Assembly: GCA_016217725.1 (NCBI GenBank)
Contig: JACRHB010000081.1
Span: forward strand, 1-48,015
Length of the DNA stretch: 48,015 nt
Reading direction: 5' to 3'
From: Nitrospirota bacterium
Lineage (GTDB): Bacteria > Nitrospirota > Thermodesulfovibrionia > UBA6902
How positions within the stretch are numbered: the stretch's first letter is position 1; the number at the start of each line of letters is the position of its first letter. The position numbers and the translations under genes are program-made. Below the pieces are notes generated by a model. That model saw only the letters and a program-made list of their open reading frames with translations. It had not been told where the DNA came from and did no database searches. This document shows positions 982 to 13,148 of this stretch, in pieces.

Positions 982-3900
982 TTATCTCGCTACCCCAATT
1001 GCCGCCAATTGTGAAGAATCAAAATTGGCCCCTGAAAAATCAAGCTCAAATTCTTGCCTGAAACCTATTGGCAAGGCATTATCAGAAATATTGATTATGC
1101 CGACAATGCGTCTATCAAAAACCCAATCAGTGACCCAATTATTCCCGTCCGCATTATTTCTTTCTACAATGTACGTATAACCCATATTAGTATCATTTAT
1201 TTGACAGGACAGCCCGCTAATTCGATTGCCTGTGAGATTGTAATTTTTCGTCCAGACATAATCACTGTATAGCTCAGAAGCTGATCTTGTAAAGCTAACG
1301 CCCAGATCAGTCTTATTTAACATGTTTCCTATCTTATAAACCATTACATAACCGGTCCGTATTATGTTTGTATATTCCGAATTAAATATCTCATCATAGC
1401 CGAAGTCATTTATAACAACCACATTGTCTCCTGTCCCGGTTATACCGACCCCTGTCGCAGATTGACTGCTGGAATGGAAATCGTTATCGTCATATACATA
1501 AAAAAGTATATAATTTTTATCTCCATCCATATGGTCGTAATCCATTACTCCCCTAAATTTTCTCTCGCTTGAATCGCTATTGCCATATTCTATAAAGGAC
1601 GTATAGGGCTCCCCGTCTTTTGTCAACGTTACGGTATCCCCGGAAATTGTGCTTACGATCGAGTCATAACCAGAGACCGCAGGACCTGAACAACAACAAT
1701 CAGGGTTGCTGTCAGAAATTATCTCCAGGCCCGATGTCGTACTGTCAATATTATAAGGAGATCTGCCATTTCTATATGATTCGCTCATAAATTCTTCTAT
1801 AATGTTATCGCCGACAACTAATCTGGAATGTCCGGAAGATGTAGATGAAGATACGTTATATCCGACAGTAAATGATTCCGTCGTTCTTGTTGTTACAGTA
1901 CGTTCGCACGGAGAATAGTCTATAAAATCATTATATGTGCGCGTCCTCGTAATTATTTCTTCCATGGCTCCGCCGCTTTCCGAGGAATATTGAGATGAGT
2001 CGGAACCATCTGTATTTGTATGGATGGTTTTATTCCTGTCCAATACAGCAAGGTAATCATTCCCCTCCGGAAGGTCTATCCCTCTAACCCAATTGCCGGT
2101 TTCGTCTTTATACTGAATGTGAAAAGGACCGGCATAATCGCTGCCGCTATAGGCATAGGCGCCATTTTTTCTTATATTGATATTCCTTGCTGCCAGCTTA
2201 TTATCTATGACTTCAAACGGCCTTCTGCCATGAATATAATTTGCAAGTCTTATGCCGTCTTGTCCTGACACCCATTCTCCATATGTAAACCCGCTATCCC
2301 AGGCATAAGGGCTTCCTTCAGCAAAATTAATTGGGACGTAAGCCTGCGGGAAACCCTTTACAATATCGTGCCACCATGAATCATAATCAAACCTTTTACC
2401 ATATTTGCTTTCGCCTATCAGTGTAGGTCCGTAACTCGTCTGAAAACTGCTGTCCGCATTATAACGGGAAATCGGCAACATAGCCGTATGTTCCTTTTTA
2501 TTCGGATGGGACTGTACTGTTAATGATGTCGAACCGTAGGATGTATTGATATTGATGTCTTTATCAGTTGCCGGTATTAACTGATATTGATTGTTAGCGG
2601 GTTTAATTTCAAAAGCTGTCTGCTGCCTATCGAGGTTCACTAAAAACAAGAAATCCCTGTTAAGCTCATGCACTCTCCCGACAACCGCCTCTTCTTCATT
2701 GCCGAGCCTTCCTCTAAAAACAAGGGCGTATCTTTTTGCATCATACGGCAGGTTAAGCTGTACGTTGCTGCTTTTGTTATTACCTGAGCTCAATGTGCCG
2801 AGTGTGAAGCTGTAACTCCAGAGCATTATTCTCTCGTCATCTGAGTCATCATAGTAAAGCTCAAACGTTCCGTCCATGTTTTCTTCCGTGTTGTTTACGA
2901 TCACGTACCCTGAGCCGGTCTCTGTATCATCTGCCAAGTCAATGTCTCCCCGGAAGAAATAATTCAAAAGCCCCGCTGAGTAACCGACGGCGCGGGGGAT
3001 GAGAAGGGTAGCATAGTCTTTGTAAACATTATCGTCCAACACCGGAATTTTAGGAAGAGCAAAGCTCAATAATGGGTATTGATTTCTGTAATAATCAAGA
3101 AAATCCACAGCAGCGAGTAAATATCCCTGCCCCCTATTCGTCTCGCCACAGCAATTCTTTTTATAATATTGTCTCATGTACGTACCAAAAGGGCTTGCAT
3201 GAGATGTTTCAGTTATTGTCGTACCTTCAATTCTCGGATAAGGATAATCGTTAAAATTTGCAGCGAACAGGCCTTCACTCACAAAATTTGCATTGGCATA
3301 TTCCGCAAGTCCAATCGCAGTTCCAGCCGTCACAGTTGGGTCAGGAGCCGCGCTGTTGTATTGATCTGTATCAAATATCTTCGCAATCGGGATCGGGGCT
3401 AATGGGTTCGGCGTATATGTAAGAATGACAGGGTCAAAGGGGACCGGATTTGCAAGTGCATTATCAAATATAATTCTTTCTTGCAGGTCATCACTTGTCC
3501 TAAATTTATCCACTGCTACCTCATAGGGCTCATCAAGAACATGAATATCATCCCTCGTATGCGCAGGCACGCTCATATCTTCTACCAGATGCATAATCTG
3601 GCCTATGCCCTGGAAAGTGTAACCGAAATATTTTTCTCTTTCAAGTTGAGTAGAGACAACTAATGCTCCATCAAAGTCTTTACCAGTCAAGGCTATGTAG
3701 TAATACTCCCTGACTGCTTTCCAAGAATACTTCCCTCCCAAAAGACTCCCAAATAAACCCTGATCCTGCGCCCACAATATGGATGATTGAGATATTCCTT
3801 TCAAACCAGCGCTGTCCCATGTTTTTAATGGATCATGGAAATGATTAAGGGATCGGGTATACATCGGCTCGTCTTCGGCCTTGCCGCCGTCTGTTATCCA

Positions 3901-4113
3901 CTTAATAATCTTCTTTTTGTTTACAGTGTCATCTATCCCGCCCGCAAAACCTAATTCCTTTATCAGATAGTCCTTTAGAGAAAAACCATTTATACTTGTT
4001 GAAGCTATTACTTCATTAAGCCTCTCATGCGTTGGTTTTTCTAATGCACTTGATAGAGATGATGAGAGTACAAGAATTATATATAATATAACTGATATTA
4101 ATCGTCTATTCAT
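982..4113 (-). CDS. Large secreted protein with N-terminal zinc phospholipase C / S1-P1 nuclease-like domain, C-terminal ~750 aa unassigned
   Basis: Signal peptide. Motifs KPTHERL, NHFHDP and HLVEDMSVPAHTRDD (H-x3-D-x3-P-x-H) match the zinc-ligand pattern of the PLC/P1 nuclease fold. It starts 13 nt after the upstream gene stop, so it is in an operon. Confidence 0.65.
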   Translation of the reverse strand: MNRRLISVILYIILVLSSSLSSALEKPTHERLNEVIASTSINGFSLKDYLIKELGFAGGIDDTVNKKKIIKWITDGGKAEDEPMYTRSLNHFHDPLKTWDSAGLKGISQSSILWAQDQGLFGSLLGGKYSWKAVREYYYIALTGKDFDGALVVSTQLEREKYFGYTFQGIGQIMHLVEDMSVPAHTRDDIHVLDEPYEVAVDKFRTSDDLQERIIFDNALANPVPFDPVILTYTPNPLAPIPIAKIFDTDQYNSAAPDPTVTAGTAIGLAEYANANFVSEGLFAANFNDYPYPRIEGTTITETSHASPFGTYMRQYYKKNCCGETNRGQGYLLAAVDFLDYYRNQYPLLSFALPKIPVLDDNVYKDYATLLIPRAVGYSAGLLNYFFRGDIDLADDTETGSGYVIVNNTEENMDGTFELYYDDSDDERIMLWSYSFTLGTLSSGNNKSSNVQLNLPYDAKRYALVFRGRLGNEEEAVVGRVHELNRDFLFLVNLDRQQTAFEIKPANNQYQLIPATDKDININTSYGSTSLTVQSHPNKKEHTAMLPISRYNADSSFQTSYGPTLIGESKYGKRFDYDSWWHDIVKGFPQAYVPINFAEGSPYAWDSGFTYGEWVSGQDGIRLANYIHGRRPFEVIDNKLAARNINIRKNGAYAYSGSDYAGPFHIQYKDETGNWVRGIDLPEGNDYLAVLDRNKTIHTNTDGSDSSQYSSESGGAMEEIITRTRTYNDFIDYSPCERTVTTRTTESFTVGYNVSSSTSSGHSRLVVGDNIIEEFMSESYRNGRSPYNIDSTTSGLEIISDSNPDCCCSGPAVSGYDSIVSTISGDTVTLTKDGEPYTSFIEYGNSDSSERKFRGVMDYDHMDGDKNYILFYVYDDNDFHSSSQSATGVGITGTGDNVVVINDFGYDEIFNSEYTNIIRTGYVMVYKIGNMLNKTDLGVSFTRSASELYSDYVWTKNYNLTGNRISGLSCQINDTNMGYTYIVERNNADGNNWVTDWVFDRRIVGIINISDNALPIGFRQEFELDFSGANFDSSQLAAIGVAR

Positions 4114-4126
4114 ATAAACCTCACTT

Positions 4127-4696
4127 TTATTTCCTAAACCCTAAGTTTCTATTCTCAATATCAACCATTTTTAGCGTATTCTTAAATTTCTCTTCTGGGA
4201 CAGAACTATCAATAACTGTTTCGACTGCATTAAGACTTTTTATTCTCTCCTCTCTCGTCTTAAGTTTCGGAAGTTCGATAATGCCAGGAGATAATCTGAA
4301 TACCTTCCCTTTCTCGGGCAACTCAACTGCCTTGTCTGTCACATTTTCATCAAGACGTATGTCTATACTTAAATACCCAGGCTTGAAGATCGTGAATTCC
4401 GGCTCTCTGATGTAACTTACTATCGGCAATAGATTAATCGGCGTATATGACGGAATCTCAAAAGTTCCTTCCTTATTGGTTAAAACCTCCTTGGCTTCAT
4501 AGAAATAAGTATTAGCACCTGCAAGGGTTCTATAAGCCCTCTGCCATACTGCCAGAACAACCGCGTCTTCAAGAGGCTCTTTTGTTTCTATGTCGATGAT
4601 CTTACCCTTCCAGGGACCTGCGGCAAAAACATATCCACAGTTCAGTGAAATCGATAACAAAATGTAAAAAGCGCTTAATAAGATTTTATTAATCAT
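4127..4696 (-). CDS. Small secreted protein, possible carboxypeptidase-regulatory-like beta-sandwich
   Basis: Signal peptide (..GYVFA/AG). GKIIDIETKEPLEDAVVLAV resembles the CarboxypepD_reg-type strand pattern. Sandwiched 13-16 nt from both giant genes. Confidence 0.6.
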   Translation of the reverse strand: MINKILLSAFYILLSISLNCGYVFAAGPWKGKIIDIETKEPLEDAVVLAVWQRAYRTLAGANTYFYEAKEVLTNKEGTFEIPSYTPINLLPIVSYIREPEFTIFKPGYLSIDIRLDENVTDKAVELPEKGKVFRLSPGIIELPKLKTREERIKSLNAVETVIDSSVPEEKFKNTLKMVDIENRNLGFRK

Positions 4697-4712: not shown

Positions 4713-7700
4713 TTAAAATTTCCCTATCTTCCATAATCCATCCGCATCTTTTACAAACAAGAGATGGAAAGAATATGCAACACCATTTCTCGTTACAATT
4801 ACTTCATACTCGGCTCTACGATCTTCGATCGTGACCAGTTGGATTTGTCCCATGTCATTGGCGATGATGTCAAGGATAGGTGATAGGGCAGTAAATTGTT
4901 GTCTGTATGCTTCCTGTGAATTTGTATCGAAAAGTTCGACCGCCCCTTCAACATTCTGATTCGCCAAAGCCGTTCTCATGCCATTCCACTTTCCCTGCAG
5001 CAATACATCCAATTGTGCCGAATTGAGTACTGCTATTGCAATTGTATCGGTATAAGTATTGTTCTGGTCATCTGTTACCGTCACAGTCGGATAGTAGATG
5101 CCTTCTGTTGTGTAGGTATAGCTTATATCGTCAAAGTTTGCTCCGGTATAATCAATCGTTCCGTCCCCCTCGTAATCAATCTGATAACGTGCCGCCGAAT
5201 TGGGTACCTCTGTTGATACCGAGAAATAAGTTGTAAATGGAGCTATACCTGATTCGACGTTTGCCCTCAGGGTCACATGCGGTGATGAGATTGCAGCATT
5301 TACGGTTATTGAGGCGGTTGATGCGTTACCCGATGTGTCTGTTGCGGTGACCGTTATTACGTTTGAACCCTCTGTTAACGGCACATGGTTTATTACAAAT
5401 TCATTATTGTAGACAGTCGCTGTCGTTCCGTTTACAACCACGCCTGTTTCATTGCCTGTGGCATTAATTATGGCGCCTATGACCATTACATCCGGCCTTG
5501 ATATGACAGCTCCGTTCAAAGGATAGGTTATGATTATCGGTGGAGTTGTAAAGCTCATATCCTCTCCATAACTCGTTCCGCCGCCGTTGGATGCCGCTGC
5601 TCTGTAATGGTAAGTTGTGTTTGGGATAAGTCCCGTTATATTTGCCGATACCCCGACATTGTTTATTCCATTTCCTATGGACTGAATAGTCGTAGTATTT
5701 CCATAAGAAGTAGTTGTCCCCCATAGAAAATATACAGTGGTATCCGCGCCGTTTGCATTGACTGCTGCGTTTAATGTAGCAGAGCTGCCGTTAACATTTG
5801 TCGGCGGATTGGTTGTTACCATCGGAGGAATAATCAATGTTGTTGCATTTGCCTCGTTGCTGAAGTCGGAATTTCCATCAGCGTTATAAGCCCGCACCCT
5901 ATAGTAATAAGTTGTTCCTGTCAGCAGCCCGGTGTCAGAGTATGTAGTTACATCCGCTTCCTTAGTTGCAATCAGCCTGTATGTCCCATCAATACCGAGC
6001 TTACGCTCTATTTTGAAGCCGATTTCGTTGCCGGAATTATCCGTCCATGAAAGGTTTATCTGACCGGAAGATATTGCCGTAGCCGTTAAATTGGAAGGCG
6101 CCGGAGGAGCTATTTTGAAGCTTATGTCATCGCCATAGCTTGTCCCGATAATATTGGCTGCTACTATTCTATAATGGTAAGTAGTATTCGGTAAAAGCTC
6201 CGCTATATCGGAAGATACAAAGACGGCATCTATCCCATTCCCTATGGATTGAGAGGGGGTGACAGTTCCATAGGATGTGTCTGTGCCCCACTGAAAATAG
6301 ACCGTTGTCTCTGCGCCATCGGGATTGACTATGGCATTTAATGTAGCGGAGCTGCTGTCTATATCGGTTGCAGAGTCGGTTATGACGGCAGGCGCGCCTG
6401 CCGAAGCAAGAGGAAAGGCGTCATCTCCGTCATTTATGCCGTCGCCGTCGGTGTCGGGGTTTGACGGATCTGTGCCTATAAAGCTTTCTTCAACGTCCGT
6501 TAACCCGTCATTATCATTATCGGCATCGCATACATCACCTATTCCGTCGCCGTCCGCATCTAATTGGTCCGGGTTGTAAACAGACGGACAATTGTCAGCG
6601 TTGTCTCCCACCCCATCGCCAATATTCAAGGTGTAAAGATAGATATCTTCGTTTCCATTTCTATCATCTGTATACACAATGTTGTCCCCTGATATTGCCG
6701 GGGAATATTGCGCTGAGGGATTTGCAGTAGCCTGAATCTCCGAGCCTGAGGCTATGTCATACATATAAATATCTGAGTTGCCGTTTCTCCAATCCTCCCA
6801 GGCAATGCGGTCTCCTGAAATCACGGGGTAATACTGATCTGAGGCATCTATGGTAATTTGTGTCTCAACGCCTGTGGATATATCATACGTGTAAATATCA
6901 TCGTATCCATCTCTATAACCTTGCCAGACAACACGACTCCCTGATATGGCCGGATAATATCGTCCTTCAGGATTTGAAGTTGCCTGCGTTTCAACTCCTG
7001 TTAATATATCATACATATAGATTTCAGCATTGCCGGTTCTATAATCCATCCAGACGATGCGACTCCCCGATATGGCCGGATCGTATGCATAAGTATTTGC
7101 GGCAATCTGTGCCTCAACACTTGTGGATATGTCATACATATAAAGGTCGCTTCTATAATCCGTCCAGACGATGCGGTTACCTGATATGGCAGGATTGTAT
7201 TTGGATGTGGCGGATGTGCTTAATCGCGATTCAACACCTGTGGAGATGTCATACATGTAGATATCACCGTATCCGTCTCTATAATCTTCCCAGACAATAT
7301 AATCGCCGGAAATAGCAGGAGACCAGGGGTCCGAGGAATCCGTAGTAACCCGTATCTCAACTTTTGCAGCCTTATCATACATATAGATATCCCACTTGTC
7401 GTTTCTTCTGTCCAGCCATACGATTCTGTTTCCTGAAATTGCAGGATAACGTTGATCAAAAGGGTCTGTAGTAATTCTCAATTCTCCGGCATCTGAATCC
7501 CGGGTATCTTCAGGATTTAAAGGAAAGGCATCATCTTTATCATTTACTCCGTCACCATCCGTGTCGGGATTAGAGGGATTGGTTCCCAATTGAAACTCTT
7601 TAAGGTTGGTCAGCCCGTCTCCGTCAGAATCTTCATCAGCATCATTAACAAGAGGATTTAGGTGATTATTAACTTCCCATCCGTCAGGCATTCCGTCATT

Positions 7701-9002
7701 GTCCGTATCGGCTTTTGAGGGGTCTGTCCCAAGAACTCCTTCTTCATAGTCTGTTAAATCATCATTATCGGTATCCGGATCGGGCGTCATAAAGCTCATG
7801 TCATTCCCGTTGCTTGTACTTCCGTCATTGACTGCAACTGCTTTGTAATGATATGTCGTACCGGGTAAAAGGCCCGTCAAATTAACCGATGCGCTAACAG
7901 CGCTTATTCCGTTTCCTATTGTCTGTGAAGGGGTTATATTCTCATAAGATGTAGTTGTTCCCCATTCAAAGTAAACGATGGTTTCAGAGCAATTAGGATT
8001 GACTGTTGCATTCAATGTGACGACGTCACCATTTACAATAGTCGCGGGTTGGGTAGTCACAGTCGGGGGAGTCATTGTCGCAGAATTTGCTTCATTGCTG
8101 TAATCAGAGTCTCTATAGGAATTATATGCTTTTACTCTGTAATAGTATGTCGTTCCAGGTGGCAACCCTGTATCAGAGTATGCGGCAATGTCTGCTCCGA
8201 CAGAAGCTATTTCTACATATGTGCCGTCAGCGTTTGTCTTCCGCTCTATTTTAAAGCCGGTTTCATCATTGGAATTATCTGTCCATGAAAAATCTATCCG
8301 GCTTGAGGAGATTGCTGCTGCATTAAGTCCGGATGGCGGGGGAATGTTTAATGACTGAAGACCATCTATCAATCCAAATGTAATTGGGCCTGAGCTGATG
8401 GTTGTAAAATTTTGTGTAGGAGGAACATACAATTGCATTTTCATACCGCTGACATTTGTTGCCCCCAGATAAGCCGCCAACTCGTTAATATATCTTGAAG
8501 GATGCAGACTGTCATCTCCGTTCGGGTGCAAAATTATATTGTGTAAATTTAGGGTAGCAGGATCATTGGCATTCAACCATTGATTCATCCAAACATAATA
8601 CGTGCCTTGCTGCGTAAATGTGCTGTCAGCTAAGACAGATGTAAAATAAACATAACCATCAGTTCCGATAATTGAAAAAGTGACATCATCCGGATCAGCC
8701 GGAACACCATTAAAACTATAATCCCCCGTTCTTGTAGCTCCGGAAAGAACTACACGCGCGCCATAAATAGTTTCAACACCGGGGACATTCACCTTCCAAA
8801 CATCTCCGTTTTCATAATCCATTTCCTTCACGGTTGTATTAAGGGTCAATGAACCGGTTCCGATCCCGGCAGTAACCTGATAAGTACCGCCAAACCGTAC
8901 CCATGGAAGAAGAGTAGCCGCCCAGCTACGTTCAATCATAAAAGACATTAGAGACAGGATAACGATTAATGCTACTGTTAATCTTTTGTTAACGCTCCCC
9001 AT
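4713..9002 (-). CDS. Giant secreted multidomain surface protein (FN3, TSP3 calcium-binding repeats, 7-bladed beta-propeller, Ig-like, PKD, NTF2-like C-terminus)
   Basis: Signal peptide aa 1-28. FN3 signatures ([21 protein letters not shown]) x2. [11 protein letters not shown]-type domains x3. DTDNDG/DTDGDG TSP3 repeats x2 blocks. 7 x [24 protein letters not shown] blades. PKD (YxxDYEGDG). AGGAGG SD upstream of ATG 9002. Confidence 0.85.
6624..7490 (-). repeat. Seven tandem ~42-aa beta-propeller blade repeats inside the giant CDS
   Basis: aa ~505-793: seven copies of (Y/S/N/D)PAISG(N/D/S)RIVW.D.R.G..DIYMYD...G.E. The periodicity also creates the spurious antisense ORF 6860-7315. Confidence 0.8.
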
Positions 9003-9224: not shown

Positions 9225-9253
9225 TTGACAAATATATTGTCATATTCTAATAT
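9225..9253 (+). promoter_or_regulatory. Sigma70-type promoter of the arsR-dsrE operon (near-leaderless)
   Basis: TTGACA (9225-9230), 17-nt spacer, TAATAT (9248-9253). ATG 9262 is only 8 nt after the -10 and there is no SD. Confidence 0.6.
9226..9242. promoter_or_regulatory. Inverted repeat TGACAA-N5-TTGTCA overlapping the -35 and spacer (candidate ArsR operator)
   Basis: Perfect 6-bp arms. A third TTGTCA copy lies at 9186-9191. Confidence 0.45.
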
Positions 9254-9261
9254 TTGAATGT

Positions 9262-9603
9262 ATGAATAATTTAACAGCGCGTATAGACCTTTTAAAGCTT
9301 ATCGCCCATCCTACAAGGATCGCCATTTTAGATGAGCTGTCTAAAGGCGTAAAGTGTGTCAGCGACCTCGAAGAATTCCTTGAAGTAAGCCAGTCCAATA
9401 TCTCACAGCATCTTTCTTCATTACGGCTTGCGGGTATTATTGATTACTTCATTGATGGAAGACTGCGCTGTTATTTCTTAAAGAATCCATTCATTCCCGA
9501 TTTACTCGAAATCCTGAAAAAAGAATATTCTTGCGATTTACCGGGACCCGAGTGTTGTCCCGTTACAAAGAAAGGCACATACCACGGAGAAAGGAGAAAA
9601 TGA
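9262..9603 (+). CDS. ArsR/SmtB-family HTH transcriptional regulator
   Basis: LKLIAHPTRIAILDELSKGVKCVSDLEEFLEVSQSNISQHLSSLRLAGII is a typical ArsR winged HTH. Cys in the alpha2 position plus a C-terminal CDLPGPECC cluster. Confidence 0.85.
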   Translation: MNNLTARIDLLKLIAHPTRIAILDELSKGVKCVSDLEEFLEVSQSNISQHLSSLRLAGIIDYFIDGRLRCYFLKNPFIPDLLEILKKEYSCDLPGPECCPVTKKGTYHGERRK

Positions 9604-9960
9604 ATGGCAAAGAAGATCACGTTGTTCCTGAATACATCTCCTTACAGCTATGAAAACACTTACACGGCGATGAAGATCGCTGAAGCCGCTCTTGAAAAAG
9701 GATTGCAGACGCACGTTGTAGCGTCTGCCGACGGCGTCTACAATTTCCTCAACGGACAAAAAGGCAAAGGACTTCCCCATGCCGCAGATGGATTTAAAGC
9801 GTTGATGGACAAAGGACTGAAAGTCGACCTCTGAGGCGGCTGTGTGAACTTCCGTTGTATTACGGGAGCGAGTTACATCGAAGGGACCAATAAAGGCGCT
9901 TTGAAGGGCCTTTTCTCATTAATGAAGCAATCGGATATTTTTGTTAACCTGGGGTTTTAG
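9604..9960 (+). CDS. DsrE/TusD-like sulfur-relay protein with in-frame TGA (9832-9834) read as selenocysteine
   Basis: ORF track ends at TGA after 76 aa. The same frame continues GGCVNFRCITG...VNLGF to TAG 9958-9960 (118 codons, normal DsrE size). TGA falls where homologues carry the catalytic Cys, giving U-G-G-C. Hairpin 14 nt downstream. Confidence 0.65.
9849..9868 (+). promoter_or_regulatory. SECIS-like stem-loop
   Basis: cttccgt / acgggag forms a 7-bp stem (one G-U) with loop tgtatt. It begins 14 nt 3' of TGA 9832-9834. Confidence 0.45.
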
Positions 9961-9995
9961 AGATACTTTTTGAAAAGCACACAAATATATAAAAT

Positions 9996-10070
9996 GTCAT
10001 TCTGAGGGACAAAGTTCCGAAGAATCTTTGAATATACAAAGGCGAGATTCTTCGCTTCGCTCAGAATGAC
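9996..10070. mobile_element. MITE/REP-like palindromic element, GTCATTC...GAATGAC family (copy 1)
   Basis: Terminal inverted repeats GTCATTCTGAG / CTCAGAATGAC. Internal cgaagaatc / gattcttcg arms. Sits between the dsrE-like and dsrH-like genes. Confidence 0.65.
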
Positions 10071-10086
10071 AAAGACGGAGATAAAG

Positions 10087-10350
10087 ATGCTTTTCCTTAT
10101 ATCGAGCGCACCGGATACAAAAGAGTTCAAGACCGCTTATGCGATGGCAAATGATATGAATGCCGACATCTGCCTTTTGCAAAATGCAGTCTACGCTTCA
10201 AGCAGCTCGAAAGACAAGACTTTATACGTGATGAGTGGCGATATGAAACTGAGAGGCTTAAGCGAAAATGAAATCTCCGGCAGGCTGATAGATTATAGTC
10301 AATTAATAGACTTAATGACTGAGACCGATAAAGTTGTCGGAATATTTTAG
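10087..10350 (+). CDS. DsrH/TusB-like sulfur-relay protein
   Basis: MLFLISS..ADICLLQNAVYA..LYVMSGDMKLRGL..LIDYSQLIDL parallels E. coli TusB (LLLLQDGV, VYAL.EDL.ARGL, IDY.DFV). Start moved from 10066 because 10066-10070 lies inside a repeat element. GGAG 6 nt before ATG 10087. Confidence 0.75.
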   Translation: MLFLISSAPDTKEFKTAYAMANDMNADICLLQNAVYASSSSKDKTLYVMSGDMKLRGLSENEISGRLIDYSQLIDLMTETDKVVGIF

Positions 10351-10457: not shown

Positions 10458-11705
10458 ATGGCAGGCAAAACCATAGTGGTTCTCGGCGCCGGGGTCGGCG
10501 GATTGGTAACCGCAAATGAACTGCGGAAGAAATTGGGCGTGGAGCACAAAATAATTTTAATAGACAAATCGAAGGAGCACGTTTCATATTCCTCCGCCTT
10601 ATGGGTAATAACGGGCGATAGAGCTATCGAAGAAATCAAAAAGCCGGTCACACGTCTGCTGCAAAGCAATATAGAATTTCTCAATGAAGAAATTCAAAAG
10701 ATCGATCCCGCAGGCAAAATCGTTAAAACTGCAACGAAAGAGATCCGCTTCGATTATCTTGTCATCTCGCTCGGGGTTTCCTTAACGCCTGAAATAGTGC
10801 CGGGGCTGACGGACGCGCTTCAAAAGAATGCCTGCAATTTTTATGATCTTAACGGGGTCACAAAGGCAAGAGACGTGATAAAGGGCTTTACCAAAGGCAC
10901 GATAATAATCATGGTCTCTGCCCTGCCATATAAATGTCCTGTTGCGCCGAATGAGTTTTCTCTTCTGCTGAACTCTTATTTCACTCGGAGAGGCGTCAGA
11001 AAGGACGTCAAAATTAAAGTTTGCACGCCCGAAGTCCTCCCGATGGGCGGCAACGGTCCCAAGACAGGAGGCATCGTTAAAGGTTTGATGGAGAGCGCCG
11101 GGGTGGAGTACAATTCCCAGCATGTGCTGCAATCCGTCAACGCAGAGAAAAACGAAGTGGTGTTTGACAAAGGCAAGATGAACTACGATCTGCTGCTGGC
11201 AATACCGCCGCATAAAGCGCCGAAGGTGATTGTCGAGGCAGGATTGGCTGAACCGGACTGGATCCCCGTGGACAAGGGAACTTTGAAAACGAAATTCGAC
11301 AAGGTTTATGCGCTCGGCGACGTGGTAAAGGTGAAGCTTCCCGGTGAATGGAAACAGGGCGTGCCCTTGATGCTTTCAAAAGGCGGCGTCTTCGCGCATT
11401 TTGAGGCAAAGGTAATTGCGGAAAATATCGCCAATGAGATTTCGGGTAAAAAAGAAAGAATCGAATATGCAGGACGCGCAGCATGCTTTGTTGAGGCAGG
11501 CTTCGGAAAGGCTGGTCTTGCGCAGGGATATTTCTTTGCAACGCCGACGCCGGATACCGTTTTCCTGCAGCCGTCAAAGATGCTGCACTTCAGCAAAATC
11601 ATGTTTGAAAAATACTGGCTCTCCGAATCGGCGCTGTTCAGAGGAATAATGGACTTCTTCATGGAGAACTGGATGTACGGGGAATATAAGAGGAAAGTGG
11701 TTTAG
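10458..11705 (+). CDS. Sulfide:quinone oxidoreductase-like FAD-dependent oxidoreductase
   Basis: N-terminal VVLGAGVGGL Rossmann motif. Cys motifs YKCPVAP and RAACFVEAG. LGDV FAD-binding motif. AGGAGG-like SD upstream. Confidence 0.75.
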   Translation: MAGKTIVVLGAGVGGLVTANELRKKLGVEHKIILIDKSKEHVSYSSALWVITGDRAIEEIKKPVTRLLQSNIEFLNEEIQKIDPAGKIVKTATKEIRFDYLVISLGVSLTPEIVPGLTDALQKNACNFYDLNGVTKARDVIKGFTKGTIIIMVSALPYKCPVAPNEFSLLLNSYFTRRGVRKDVKIKVCTPEVLPMGGNGPKTGGIVKGLMESAGVEYNSQHVLQSVNAEKNEVVFDKGKMNYDLLLAIPPHKAPKVIVEAGLAEPDWIPVDKGTLKTKFDKVYALGDVVKVKLPGEWKQGVPLMLSKGGVFAHFEAKVIAENIANEISGKKERIEYAGRAACFVEAGFGKAGLAQGYFFATPTPDTVFLQPSKMLHFSKIMFEKYWLSESALFRGIMDFFMENWMYGEYKRKVV

Positions 11706-11825
11706 CCACAGACTTTCACTGAATAAAGAACTAAGATCAAAGAGCCAACATCATCTTCCTTTAATCTTTGCTCTTTGTTCTATCAGTCTGTCTTTTTGTC
11801 TGTGTCAGTCAGTGGCAAAAAAAAT

Positions 11826-12614
11826 ATGGACCTCCCTTTTCTGACAACACTCGTTGCCCTCGGGCTCGGCGGCGGTTTTCTCTCCGGGCTTCTCGGGCTC
11901 GGCGGAGCGATCTTTATGATCCCGCTGCTGCTTTACGTTCCTCCTCTTTTAGGCGTTGGGCATCTCGACATGAAACAGGTTGCGGCCATCAGCATGGTTC
12001 AGGTGCTTTCCGCTTCTCTTTCCGGACTTATCATTCATCATAAAAACCGTTTTGTCAGCAAATCGCTTCTTTTATACATGGGAGTTTGCAATGCGATAGG
12101 CAATCTCGCAGGCTCGGTATTCTCAAAACACACAAAGAGCGATTTCCTTCTTGCGATATTCGCCGCAATGGCTGTAATTGCGTCAATCGTCATGTTCATC
12201 CCGAAGCGTGAGCAGGGGGAGAATATCCCGCCCGACGAGCTTCAATACAAAAAACCGCTTGCTTGCTTCTTCAGTCTATTGATCGGTTCCTTCGGCGGAA
12301 TGGTGGGCGCCCCCGGCGCTTTCATCTATATACCGGTTATGATTTATTTGTTGAATATCCCGACACGCATCGTCATCGGCAGCACGCTTGGAATAGTTTT
12401 TCTCGGCGCGATTACGGGCACCATAGGCAAAATGGCTACAGGACAGATTATCTGGCCGTACGCAATAGCCCTTGTCATCGGCACAGTGCCGGGGGCGCAA
12501 TTCGGCGGGAACGTCAGCAAGAAGGTAAATACGAAATATCTGCGACTTGCCATTGCGGTTATCATAGCGATCACAGGACTTCGGATGTGGTATCAGGTGG
12601 TGACGGGGCAATAA
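11826..12614 (+). CDS. TauE/SafE (TSUP) family anion exporter
   Basis: Polytopic membrane protein with LGLGGGFLSGLLGLGGAIFMIPLL and a second GxxGxPG half. ATG 11826 preferred over the longer ORF-track start 11775. Confidence 0.75.
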   Translation: MDLPFLTTLVALGLGGGFLSGLLGLGGAIFMIPLLLYVPPLLGVGHLDMKQVAAISMVQVLSASLSGLIIHHKNRFVSKSLLLYMGVCNAIGNLAGSVFSKHTKSDFLLAIFAAMAVIASIVMFIPKREQGENIPPDELQYKKPLACFFSLLIGSFGGMVGAPGAFIYIPVMIYLLNIPTRIVIGSTLGIVFLGAITGTIGKMATGQIIWPYAIALVIGTVPGAQFGGNVSKKVNTKYLRLAIAVIIAITGLRMWYQVVTGQ

Positions 12615-12761
12615 ATATTATGAATATGAGGAGATTTACCCTGGAGAGTTTCTGAAGCAGCTTGCTGTAACTTTTCATTGGAAAGTGCTAAGCTTTCAAA
12701 TATGAAAACAGCCTTATGCGCTGAATTTGATAAAAACTAAAGATGAAAGGAGGTGGAGAGA

Positions 12762-13148
12762 ATGAGATTTTTAAAAATAATATTGCTCTCCATGATTGCC
12801 GCGGCTTTTCTTGCATCGTTCGTGCTCGCAGCAGGGATGGAAGGCAGCGCCGAAAAAGGGAAGGCCTACTTTAATGACGCAAAATTCGCCGGAGGAGCTG
12901 CTTCATGCGGTTCATGTCATCCCAACGGAAAGGGCCTGGACAAGGCTGCCGTGAAGATGCAGTGGAAGAATCCGGCAGGGACGTGGCTTAACCTTGAAGA
13001 TACGATCAACGTATGCATCATCATGGGGAACAAGGGCAAGGCCATTGATCCGAAATCCGCTGAAATGATGGATTTGATCGCCTATCTCAAATCCCTTGGC
13101 AAAGAGACGAAGGAAATGCCCAAGAAGGGAAAGACCGGAGGCTATTAA
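12762..13148 (+). CDS. Periplasmic mono-haem cytochrome c
   Basis: Signal peptide, CGSCH haem-binding motif, distal Met region. AAGGAGG 8 nt before ATG 12762 (ORF track starts at GTG 12753). Confidence 0.8.
   Translation: MRFLKIILLSMIAAAFLASFVLAAGMEGSAEKGKAYFNDAKFAGGAASCGSCHPNGKGLDKAAVKMQWKNPAGTWLNLEDTINVCIIMGNKGKAIDPKSAEMMDLIAYLKSLGKETKEMPKKGKTGGY

Follow-up and report, generated by a model that had tools for sequence, protein, structure and literature searches.

It is suggested here that a gene at positions 9604 to 9960 of a Nitrospirota contig (GTDB lineage Thermodesulfovibrionia; UBA6902) encodes a DsrE/YchN-fold selenoprotein of 118 residues in which an in-frame UGA is recoded. In this study we refer to the whole stretch of DNA that was analysed, 48,015 nucleotides of the forward strand of JACRHB010000081.1 (assembly GCA_016217725.1), as the window. 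Comparison with related sequences makes it very highly probable that TGA 9832-9834 is a genuine selenocysteine (Sec) codon with a selenocysteine insertion sequence (SECIS) hairpin behind it. Taken as a whole, the explanation which best fits the observations, and which we regard as highly probable, is that of a recoded DsrE/YchN-fold selenoprotein that would serve as a subunit of a sulfur relay. The elements of the gene, referred to below as dsrE(U), are as follows.

9604..9960, + strand: predicted DsrE/YchN-like selenoprotein gene, 118 codons and TAG, with Sec at codon 77; supported by its translation, by Pfam DsrE and by 46 loci of the same kind
9832..9834, + strand: in-frame TGA, predicted to be read as selenocysteine (U77), the first residue of U-G-G-C; TGA is invariant in all Sec-type loci
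9835..9957, + strand: 41-codon extension missed by gene callers, corresponding to helix 78-83, strand 95-98, helix 100-109 and strand 112-116 of the DsrE fold
9849..9868, + strand: candidate bacterial SECIS-type hairpin, a 7-bp stem (9849-9855 with 9862-9868) and apical loop UGUAUU (9856-9861)

The start codon, ATG 9604-9606, directly abuts the TGA stop of an arsR gene (9601-9603), and AAAGGAG at 9590-9596 lies just ahead of it. Seventy-six sense codons ending in ...KGLKVDL lead to TGA 9832-9834, from which the same frame continues through 41 further sense codons (GGCVNFRCITGASYIEGTNKGALKGLFSLMKQSDIFVNLGF) to TAG 9958-9960. Cys80, encoded by TGT 9841-9843, completes the motif U77-G-G-C80. An earlier note on this DNA had described the open reading frame (ORF) of 76 aa, its continuation to the TAG and a U-x-x-C pair formed with the Cys at 9841-9843; all of these coordinates check, and the pair reads U-G-G-C. 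The note had further held that 118 codons make up a full single-domain DsrE-type protein, and this is borne out by the match of the read-through product to Pfam DsrE (PF02635), which extends over residues 3-114 on profile positions 1-114 of 116 (E 9e-18; 64.9 bits against a gathering cut-off of 22.7). The frame 9229-9960 contains two TGAs, 9832-9834 and the stop of arsR, which is in the dsrE frame. The latter can be regarded as a true stop since arsR and dsrE lie 27-45 nt apart in two relatives (L009 and L011).

Analysis of relatives proved the most informative. The loci examined were 17 from genome assemblies (L001-L017), 28 from metagenomes and four further contigs, and they derive from Nitrospirota/Thermodesulfovibrionia metagenome-assembled genomes (MAGs), three closed chromosomes among them, one 'Deferribacteres' MAG and one unclassified bacterium; CP070644, CP070632 and CP070788 are close relatives. 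The homologous codon is TGA in 46 loci besides the window, at a protein identity of 58-88%, and none of these 46 terminates there. All TGA-type loci that are sufficiently long stay open in frame, the stop following 40-41 codons on, or 50-66 codons past the TGA in two clades that bear inserts. These inserts are found just past the SECIS region and consist of a Cys-rich segment of 24-25 aa (ERGGCADGxCSIE..., codons ~96-120) in L014-L016, L040 and L041, and of a segment of roughly 10 aa with one Cys (DDNFKTVCPING) in L037-L039. Across 28 distinct genes of the 118-codon architecture, the mean ratio of nonsynonymous to synonymous polymorphism (pN/pS) amounts to 0.13 before the TGA and 0.17 after it, and the median ratio of the corresponding substitution rates (dN/dS) to 0.05 and 0.08, respectively. 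An open and conserved frame with so low a downstream dN/dS indicates that the extension is translated and under purifying selection. An error of assembly at the TGA, about which the earlier note had asked, is ruled out by the agreement of many independent assemblies. Internal restart after the TGA can be rejected as well, since no start codon is conserved there; codon 81 is GTG in the window and GTA, GTC, GTT, ATA or CTT in relatives.

The protein search illustrates how these genes are treated in databases. Among the 120 clusters listed, 119 are called short, most of them at 75-77 aa, as the earlier note had expected of standard gene callers. The sole full-length exception among these matches is P0116, a Cys homologue of 118 aa (...VELCGTCLTFRG...). 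Named clusters among the matches listed carry the labels 'DsrE family protein' or 'TusD component', and Rokubacteria and other groups hold look-alike truncated clusters.

P0116 was scanned against 1.84 billion cluster representatives and matched 211 proteins at E <= 0.001, which makes for a small family. The earlier note had proposed a search for a Cys column at the TGA, and such a column exists: of 112 full-length representatives, 107 have Cys there. The position three residues further on is Cys in 84 of the 112, and an R-G pair stands at +7 and +8 (in 105 and 102, respectively). In an alignment of 41 sequences the TGA column is the only invariant one. The top match in a profile search of PDB sequences was E. 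coli YchN (1jx7; 82 bits, E 3e-22), and the column falls on Cys78 of A. vinosum DsrE (2hy5_A; the residue number is a manual count along the alignment) and, in E. coli TusD (2d1p_A), on the equivalent residue, which is likewise known as Cys78. Judged from these alignments, the predicted Sec77 stands where DsrE and TusD have their persulfide-carrying Cys78. The AlphaFold model of P0116, which is 54% identical (predicted local distance difference test score, pLDDT, 97.6), places this Cys at the end of strand 73-77 with helix 78-83 next, in keeping with the earlier note, in which the TGA was assigned to the catalytic Cys that follows a strand. When the model was used as a Foldseek query, YchN (1jx7) came first (TM-score 0.91, root-mean-square deviation 1.3 A), followed by DsrF, DsrE and TusD, the matches of the DsrE/TusD type (2hy5 and 2d1p) having TM-scores of 0.86-0.89. 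On the same model a 76-aa product would be without helix 78-83, strands 95-98 and 112-116 and helix 100-109, so that two of five strands would be lost, and the note's opinion that such a product misses the last part of the fold holds. The closest Cys-type forms are P0116 and those of loci L044, L045 and L047.

The hairpin starts 14 nt after the UGA, as the earlier note had it. Its stem is formed by CUUCCGU (9849-9855) and ACGGGAG (9862-9868) and includes one U-G pair, the loop UGUAUU (6 nt, 9856-9861) begins 21 nt after the UGA, and the fold energy in the window is -9.4 kcal/mol. The model of the bacterial SECIS allows about 16-37 nt between UGA and loop. Such elements have been described as stem-loops that follow the UGA immediately and have a G in a small apical loop, and the spacing, small loop and loop guanosine of the predicted hairpin match this description (PMC1088965). 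An Rfam scan of the whole window returned no match, at the hairpin or elsewhere.

Comparison of the hairpin between relatives was based on 37 distinct sequences, which can be aligned gap-free over 57 nt from the TGA onwards and for which RNAalifold independently predicted the same 7-bp stem. Standard pairing is found at 97.7% of pair positions (a position being one pair in one sequence), and sliding the 3' partners by 1-3 columns lowers this to 44-61%. None of 500 column shuffles reached the observed pairing or covariation score, this control being known as lenient for related sequences. The loop-closing pair 24-31 varies on both sides (CG in 19 sequences, UA in 15, UG in 2 and CA in 1), a synonymous CGU/CGC change in Arg84 being coupled to Thr/Ala (ACG/GCG) at codon 87, and stem pair 20-35 is either U-G or U-A. 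The stem that the earlier note had proposed is therefore present, conserved and covarying at one pair. Loop positions G26 and U27 (G9857 and U9858 in the window) are invariant. The entropy of third codon positions is 1.5-1.96 at the four-fold sites that flank the stem. Inside the stem it drops to 0.22 at Asn82 and Phe83 and to 0.00 at codons 85 and 87, where the base is invariably U and, out of four that would be possible, invariably G, respectively. In the Sec clades codon 85 takes the forms UGU (Cys), AGU (Ser) and GGU (Gly), and 102 of the 112 family members have Gly there; that its GU is kept in spite of the change in amino acid indicates a constraint at the level of RNA. No hairpin is found at this place in three of the four Cys-type loci compared (L018, L044 and L045; 0 to -2.6 kcal/mol), compared with -9.4 to -12.1 kcal/mol in the Sec forms.

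Selenoproteins of this general kind are not new, as the earlier note had suspected. A 'DsrE-like protein, PF02635, UxxC' has been on prokaryotic selenoprotein lists since 2004-2005 (PMC1088965, PMC1794560, PMC13188914), and members have been predicted computationally in Desulfovibrio vulgaris, Olavius symbionts and the Sargasso Sea (PMC1088965, PMC1794560, PMC1976440, PMC9312934, PMC13188914). The gene described here shares with them PF02635, U-x-x-C, Sec in place of a conserved Cys, a downstream SECIS-type hairpin with a loop G and an uncharacterised function. It differs in lineage, which is Nitrospirota/Thermodesulfovibrionia, and the operon order ArsR-DsrE(U)-DsrF-DsrH-SQR-like-YedE(U)-TusA, described below, does not occur in the parts of PMC1794560, PMC1976440, PMC1088965 and PMC13188914 that were seen. 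By PF02635 and the UxxC motif (the reference being D. vulgaris WP_014524487.1) it is assigned, at the level of sequence, to this family. Since DsrE-like selenoproteins have been listed for so long, the gene counts as a further, wrongly annotated member of a known family; the value of the finding lies mainly in the correction of annotation and in the operon context, and current concepts of Sec decoding are unchanged by it. No NCBIfam model matches the protein at E <= 0.001, and model-based annotation can therefore not flag the Sec codon and keeps truncating the gene. Many database entries would be put right by a family model in which the position of Sec is indicated.

The genes around dsrE(U) in the window are given below.

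9262..9603, + strand: ArsR/SmtB-family regulator (Pfam HTH_5, E 3e-15; NCBIfam HTH_metalloreg, 72.6 bits, cut-off 55)
10066..10350, + strand: DsrH/TusB-like gene (Pfam DsrH, E 1.6e-8; TIGR03011, 37.9 bits, below the cut-off of 49.2)
10458..11705, + strand: sulfide:quinone reductase (SQR)-like flavoprotein of 415 aa, ending in TAG (Pfam Pyr_redox_2)
11775..12614, + strand: TauE/SafE-family sulfite or anion exporter (Pfam TauE, E 4e-46; linked to the operon by adjacency only)
12753..13148, + strand: small SoxA/TsdA-type c-type cytochrome (Pfam SoxA-TsdA_cyt-c, E 5e-9; linked to the operon by adjacency only)

The conserved order is ArsR, DsrE(U), DsrF-like, DsrH-like and SQR-like flavoprotein, to which the closest relatives add a YedE(U)-like transporter and a TusA-like protein. 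The arsR gene is directly upstream of dsrE(U) in L001-L017 and its product is likely to be the operon regulator; its second NCBIfam match is the sulfite-sensing repressor BigR (42.9 bits, below the cut-off of 155). All relatives whose sequence extends far enough have a dsrF-like gene between dsrE(U) and dsrH (e.g. L053 5474-5824 and L004 6402-6752), its product scoring 36.5 against an NCBIfam cut-off of 94, and the DsrH-like gene is kept downstream, where it is called as 87 aa. The top NCBIfam match of the SQR-like protein is type III SQR, selenoprotein subtype (264 bits, below the cut-off of 525). Here the gene is not a selenoprotein gene, as it ends in a plain TAG and has no in-frame TGA, and the protein may be a Cys-type cousin of that subtype; 415-aa orthologues hold the same place in L052-L055. 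The TauE gene is also close to the operon in L001, L002 and L007. The cytochrome matches TIGR04484 (SoxA) at 31 bits, below cut-off.

Where dsrF would be expected the window has a spacer of 105 nt (9961-10065). A nested palindrome at 9995-10071 (TGTCATTCTGAGGGA...CGAAGAATCT...AGATTCTTCG.TCGCTCAGAATGACA) runs from this spacer into the start of dsrH, and its motif does not recur at any other place in the window. Its appearance is that of a short palindromic repeat element or of a scar left by a deletion. Because it overlaps the first ATG of dsrH (10066), the real start is probably ATG 10087.

The same operon includes, in seven relatives (L001, L009, L042 and L052-L055), a transporter gene of the YedE/YeeE-like type (PF04143). 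This gene has its own conserved in-frame TGA, at a site that reads ITGG-U-MAG or ADG-U-VVG, and the frame is open beyond it. The gene (7470-8657 in L053) is called as 311 aa and additional fragments of 61-83 aa. A hairpin with a loop G is predicted after the TGA in both loci that were folded (L053 and L054), and the family already figures on selenoprotein lists (PMC13188914). From its sequence this gene is a predicted second selenoprotein of the relatives' operon, and it lends indirect support to Sec decoding in these organisms. Neither the transporter gene nor the TusA gene is present in the window. The pairing of two such genes in one operon hints at selenium-dependent trafficking of sulfur or selenium in anaerobic Nitrospirota. 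In L052 (19850-20234) and L053 (14949-15333), about 10 kb from dsrE(U), there is in addition a GRDB-family gene (PF07355, the glycine/proline-reductase selenoprotein B family), which is called as 158 aa and runs off the edge of the locus; this may be a third selenoprotein gene truncated at a TGA.

The sequence of events that we propose is as follows. The hairpin 9849-9868 would act as a SECIS and recruit SelB, with GTP and Sec-tRNA(Sec), to the ribosome, UGA 9832-9834 would be decoded as selenocysteine, and translation would go on for 41 codons to the UAG. Sec77 would then be the last residue of a beta-strand, with Cys80 on the short helix that comes next. DsrE and TusD Cys78 takes sulfur from TusA and passes it to DsrC or TusE. 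By analogy with this Cys, from which a role of Sec77 in handling sulfane sulfur is argued, DsrE(U) could be the reactive subunit of a relay resembling DsrEFH/TusBCD, in the window without dsrF and with dsrH. Sec77 might accept sulfane sulfur as an Se-S(H) adduct and hand the sulfur on, and Cys80 could resolve the adduct to a selenenyl-sulfide. The relay may be fed by the neighbouring SQR-like flavoprotein or by imported thiosulfate. In relatives its partners may further include a YedE/YeeE-type transporter that contains Sec and a carrier resembling TusA, and the relay would be under the control of an ArsR/BigR-type repressor. Of this scheme, the signature of recoding, the fold, the equivalence of the active sites and the conservation of the operon are shown by the comparisons above, and we infer the chemistry, substrate and partners of DsrE(U) from such analogies. 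As Sec replaces the persulfide-carrying Cys of DsrE and TusD, the clade would offer a natural test case for selenium in a sulfur-relay active site.

Several observations weigh against recoding or against the proposed relay. The window's six frames contain 61 in-frame TGAs with >=35 open codons on each side, a chance level by itself, and a 69-nt fold is no more stable than its shuffles (z = -0.40, 63 of 200 at least as stable). Both the ORF pattern and the single-sequence fold are thus unremarkable alone, and the case rests on comparison with other sequences. In the stem, change on both sides is confined to one pair, and in the Cys-type locus L047 a different hairpin of -8.6 kcal/mol, which may be due to chance or be a SECIS relic, is found right after the Cys codon. 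A Pfam scan of the 48-kb window (about 38 ORFs) gave no domain of selA, selB or selD, and ARAGORN found no tRNA-Sec in the window or in 55 loci. The fetched loci (about 400 kb) likewise show no selA or selB, and in a tblastn search of all of them for SelD only L018 itself was recovered; in the search with the L018 SelD the three complete chromosomes of the relatives are not among the 120 matches listed. The dsrF-like gene of the relatives is absent from the window. Finally, the functional part rests on inference, and YchN, the closest solved relative, is of no known function. As to the 61 TGA sites, only that at 9832 is in frame inside a supported gene; the HisF and DUF401 genes of the window terminate at TGA with their domains complete. 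The window holds no tRNA of any kind. A reassigned genetic code can be rejected, as TGA ends 10 of 38 other ORFs of the window as an ordinary stop.

The alternative that survives best, although we consider it rather unlikely, concerns the cargo and not the codon. DsrE(U/C), DsrF and DsrH, with the YedE-like and TusA/YedF-like proteins, could traffic selenium, for example selenide to SelD, as a disassembled module of the YedE/YedF type. The closest Cys-type homologue, at 54% identity, is that of L018 (entry 142-1116). There a bona fide selD (TIGR00476, 359 bits, cut-off 125) is found two genes upstream of it, and DsrF, DsrH and an SQR-like gene come after it. The relatives' transporter has 'selenium metabolism membrane protein YedE/FdhT' as its top NCBIfam match (115 bits) and their TusA-like gene has YedF (24 bits). 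In YedF itself a TusA-like domain is joined to a DsrE-like one that bears CGxC (PMC5322559), the Cys version of U-G-G-C. These two scores are, however, far under the cut-offs of 350 and 79, selD is adjacent in one of about 55 loci, and in the Cys-type L047 an ArsR-rhodanese gene and methyltransferases take the place of selD. DsrE(U) has no match to the NCBIfam model of YedF at E <= 0.001 and is a single-domain protein of 118 aa, so that its identification as YedF was rejected. The constant partner, an SQR-like flavoprotein, and the TauE and SoxA-like cytochrome genes of the window all indicate sulfur. A broader notion, and one we hold to be doubtful, is that ArsR-DsrE(U)-DsrF-DsrH-SQR-like-YedE(U)-TusA constitutes a dedicated chalcogen-trafficking operon, widespread in Nitrospirota/Thermodesulfovibrionia and possibly in Rokubacteria and others. 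It would have a persulfide- or selenium-sensing repressor of the ArsR/BigR type and Sec both in a YedE-like membrane entry and in a DsrE-like cytoplasmic carrier, and would perhaps bring selenium to SelD. If this were true, the operon would represent a selenoprotein-dependent route of selenium supply.

It is far less likely that the UGA is read through without Sec, a near-cognate or suppressor tRNA putting in Cys or Trp and the hairpin merely slowing the ribosome or release factor. Stimulated read-through would fit the conserved TGA, the translated extension and the hairpin equally well, and it would agree with the failure to find Sec machinery in the 48-kb window and the fetched loci. Yet the TGA lies at the catalytic Cys of the family, which is a classic Cys/Sec exchange, and if Cys were wanted a plain Cys codon would be the simpler route. 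The spacing, small loop and loop G are those of a bacterial SECIS (PMC1088965), a second gene of the operon has TGA at the conserved Cys site of a listed selenoprotein family (PMC13188914), and selB and selC have been reported in Nitrospirae (PMC9312934). That the TGA is a true stop, leaving a 76-aa product alone by truncation, pseudogene formation or assembly error, or else two small proteins, is hardly credible: gene callers do give 75-77 aa in most of the 119 short clusters among the matches listed and such ORF patterns are common by chance, but this reading is ruled out by the 46 independent loci with the same TGA and a downstream frame under purifying selection, the Pfam and structural matches cross the TGA up to residue 114, the short product would lack two of five strands and no conserved start follows.

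With Sec decoding in DsrE(U) as the preferred reading, its resemblance to known systems can be considered further. The protein is closer to YchN than to canonical DsrE or TusD. YchN is of equal length (117 aa) and shares the motif C-x-x-C-x-x-x-R-G (LCKTCTDGRGI, compared with LUGGCVNFRCI here) and differs in having Cys in place of Sec. It is known as a stand-alone protein that forms a homohexamer, whereas DsrF- and DsrH-like genes follow dsrE(U), as in the heterohexameric systems. DsrEFH of A. vinosum (2hy5) and TusBCD of E. coli (2d1p) resemble the present system in the E-F-H order seen in relatives, in the alignment of U77 with Cys78 and in the TusA-like gene of the relatives' operon. However, DsrE and TusD are without a second Cys at +3, there is no dsrC, tusE, dsrAB or mnmA context here, and the F and H partners score below the TusC, TusB and DsrH equivalog cut-offs, DsrE(U) itself matching no NCBIfam model. 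The three-gene set (E/D, F/C and H/B) is complete in relatives but not in the window, where the F gene is absent. The YedE/YedF and YeeE(TsuA)/YeeD pairs are a further comparison, since the relatives' PF04143 transporter, TusA-like protein and DsrE-like protein with (C/U)GxC are the same three blocks as YedE and YedF (PMC5322559). Here the domains are in separate genes and all scores are under the family cut-offs, and the window has neither transporter nor TusA.

Some further features of the neighbourhood may be mentioned. In L047 (6001-6369), a Chloroflexota MAG with a Cys-type homologue, an ArsR-rhodanese fusion gene is accompanied by two S-adenosylmethionine (SAM) methyltransferase genes, DsrE-F-H and an SQR-like gene. 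Upstream of the operon in the window, on the - strand, positions 4713-9002 encode a secreted-looking protein of 1429 aa with repeated FN3, PhoD_N-like and bacterial TSP3 repeats, and the three ORFs that flank it (49-702, 982-4113 and 4127-4696) have no Pfam match.

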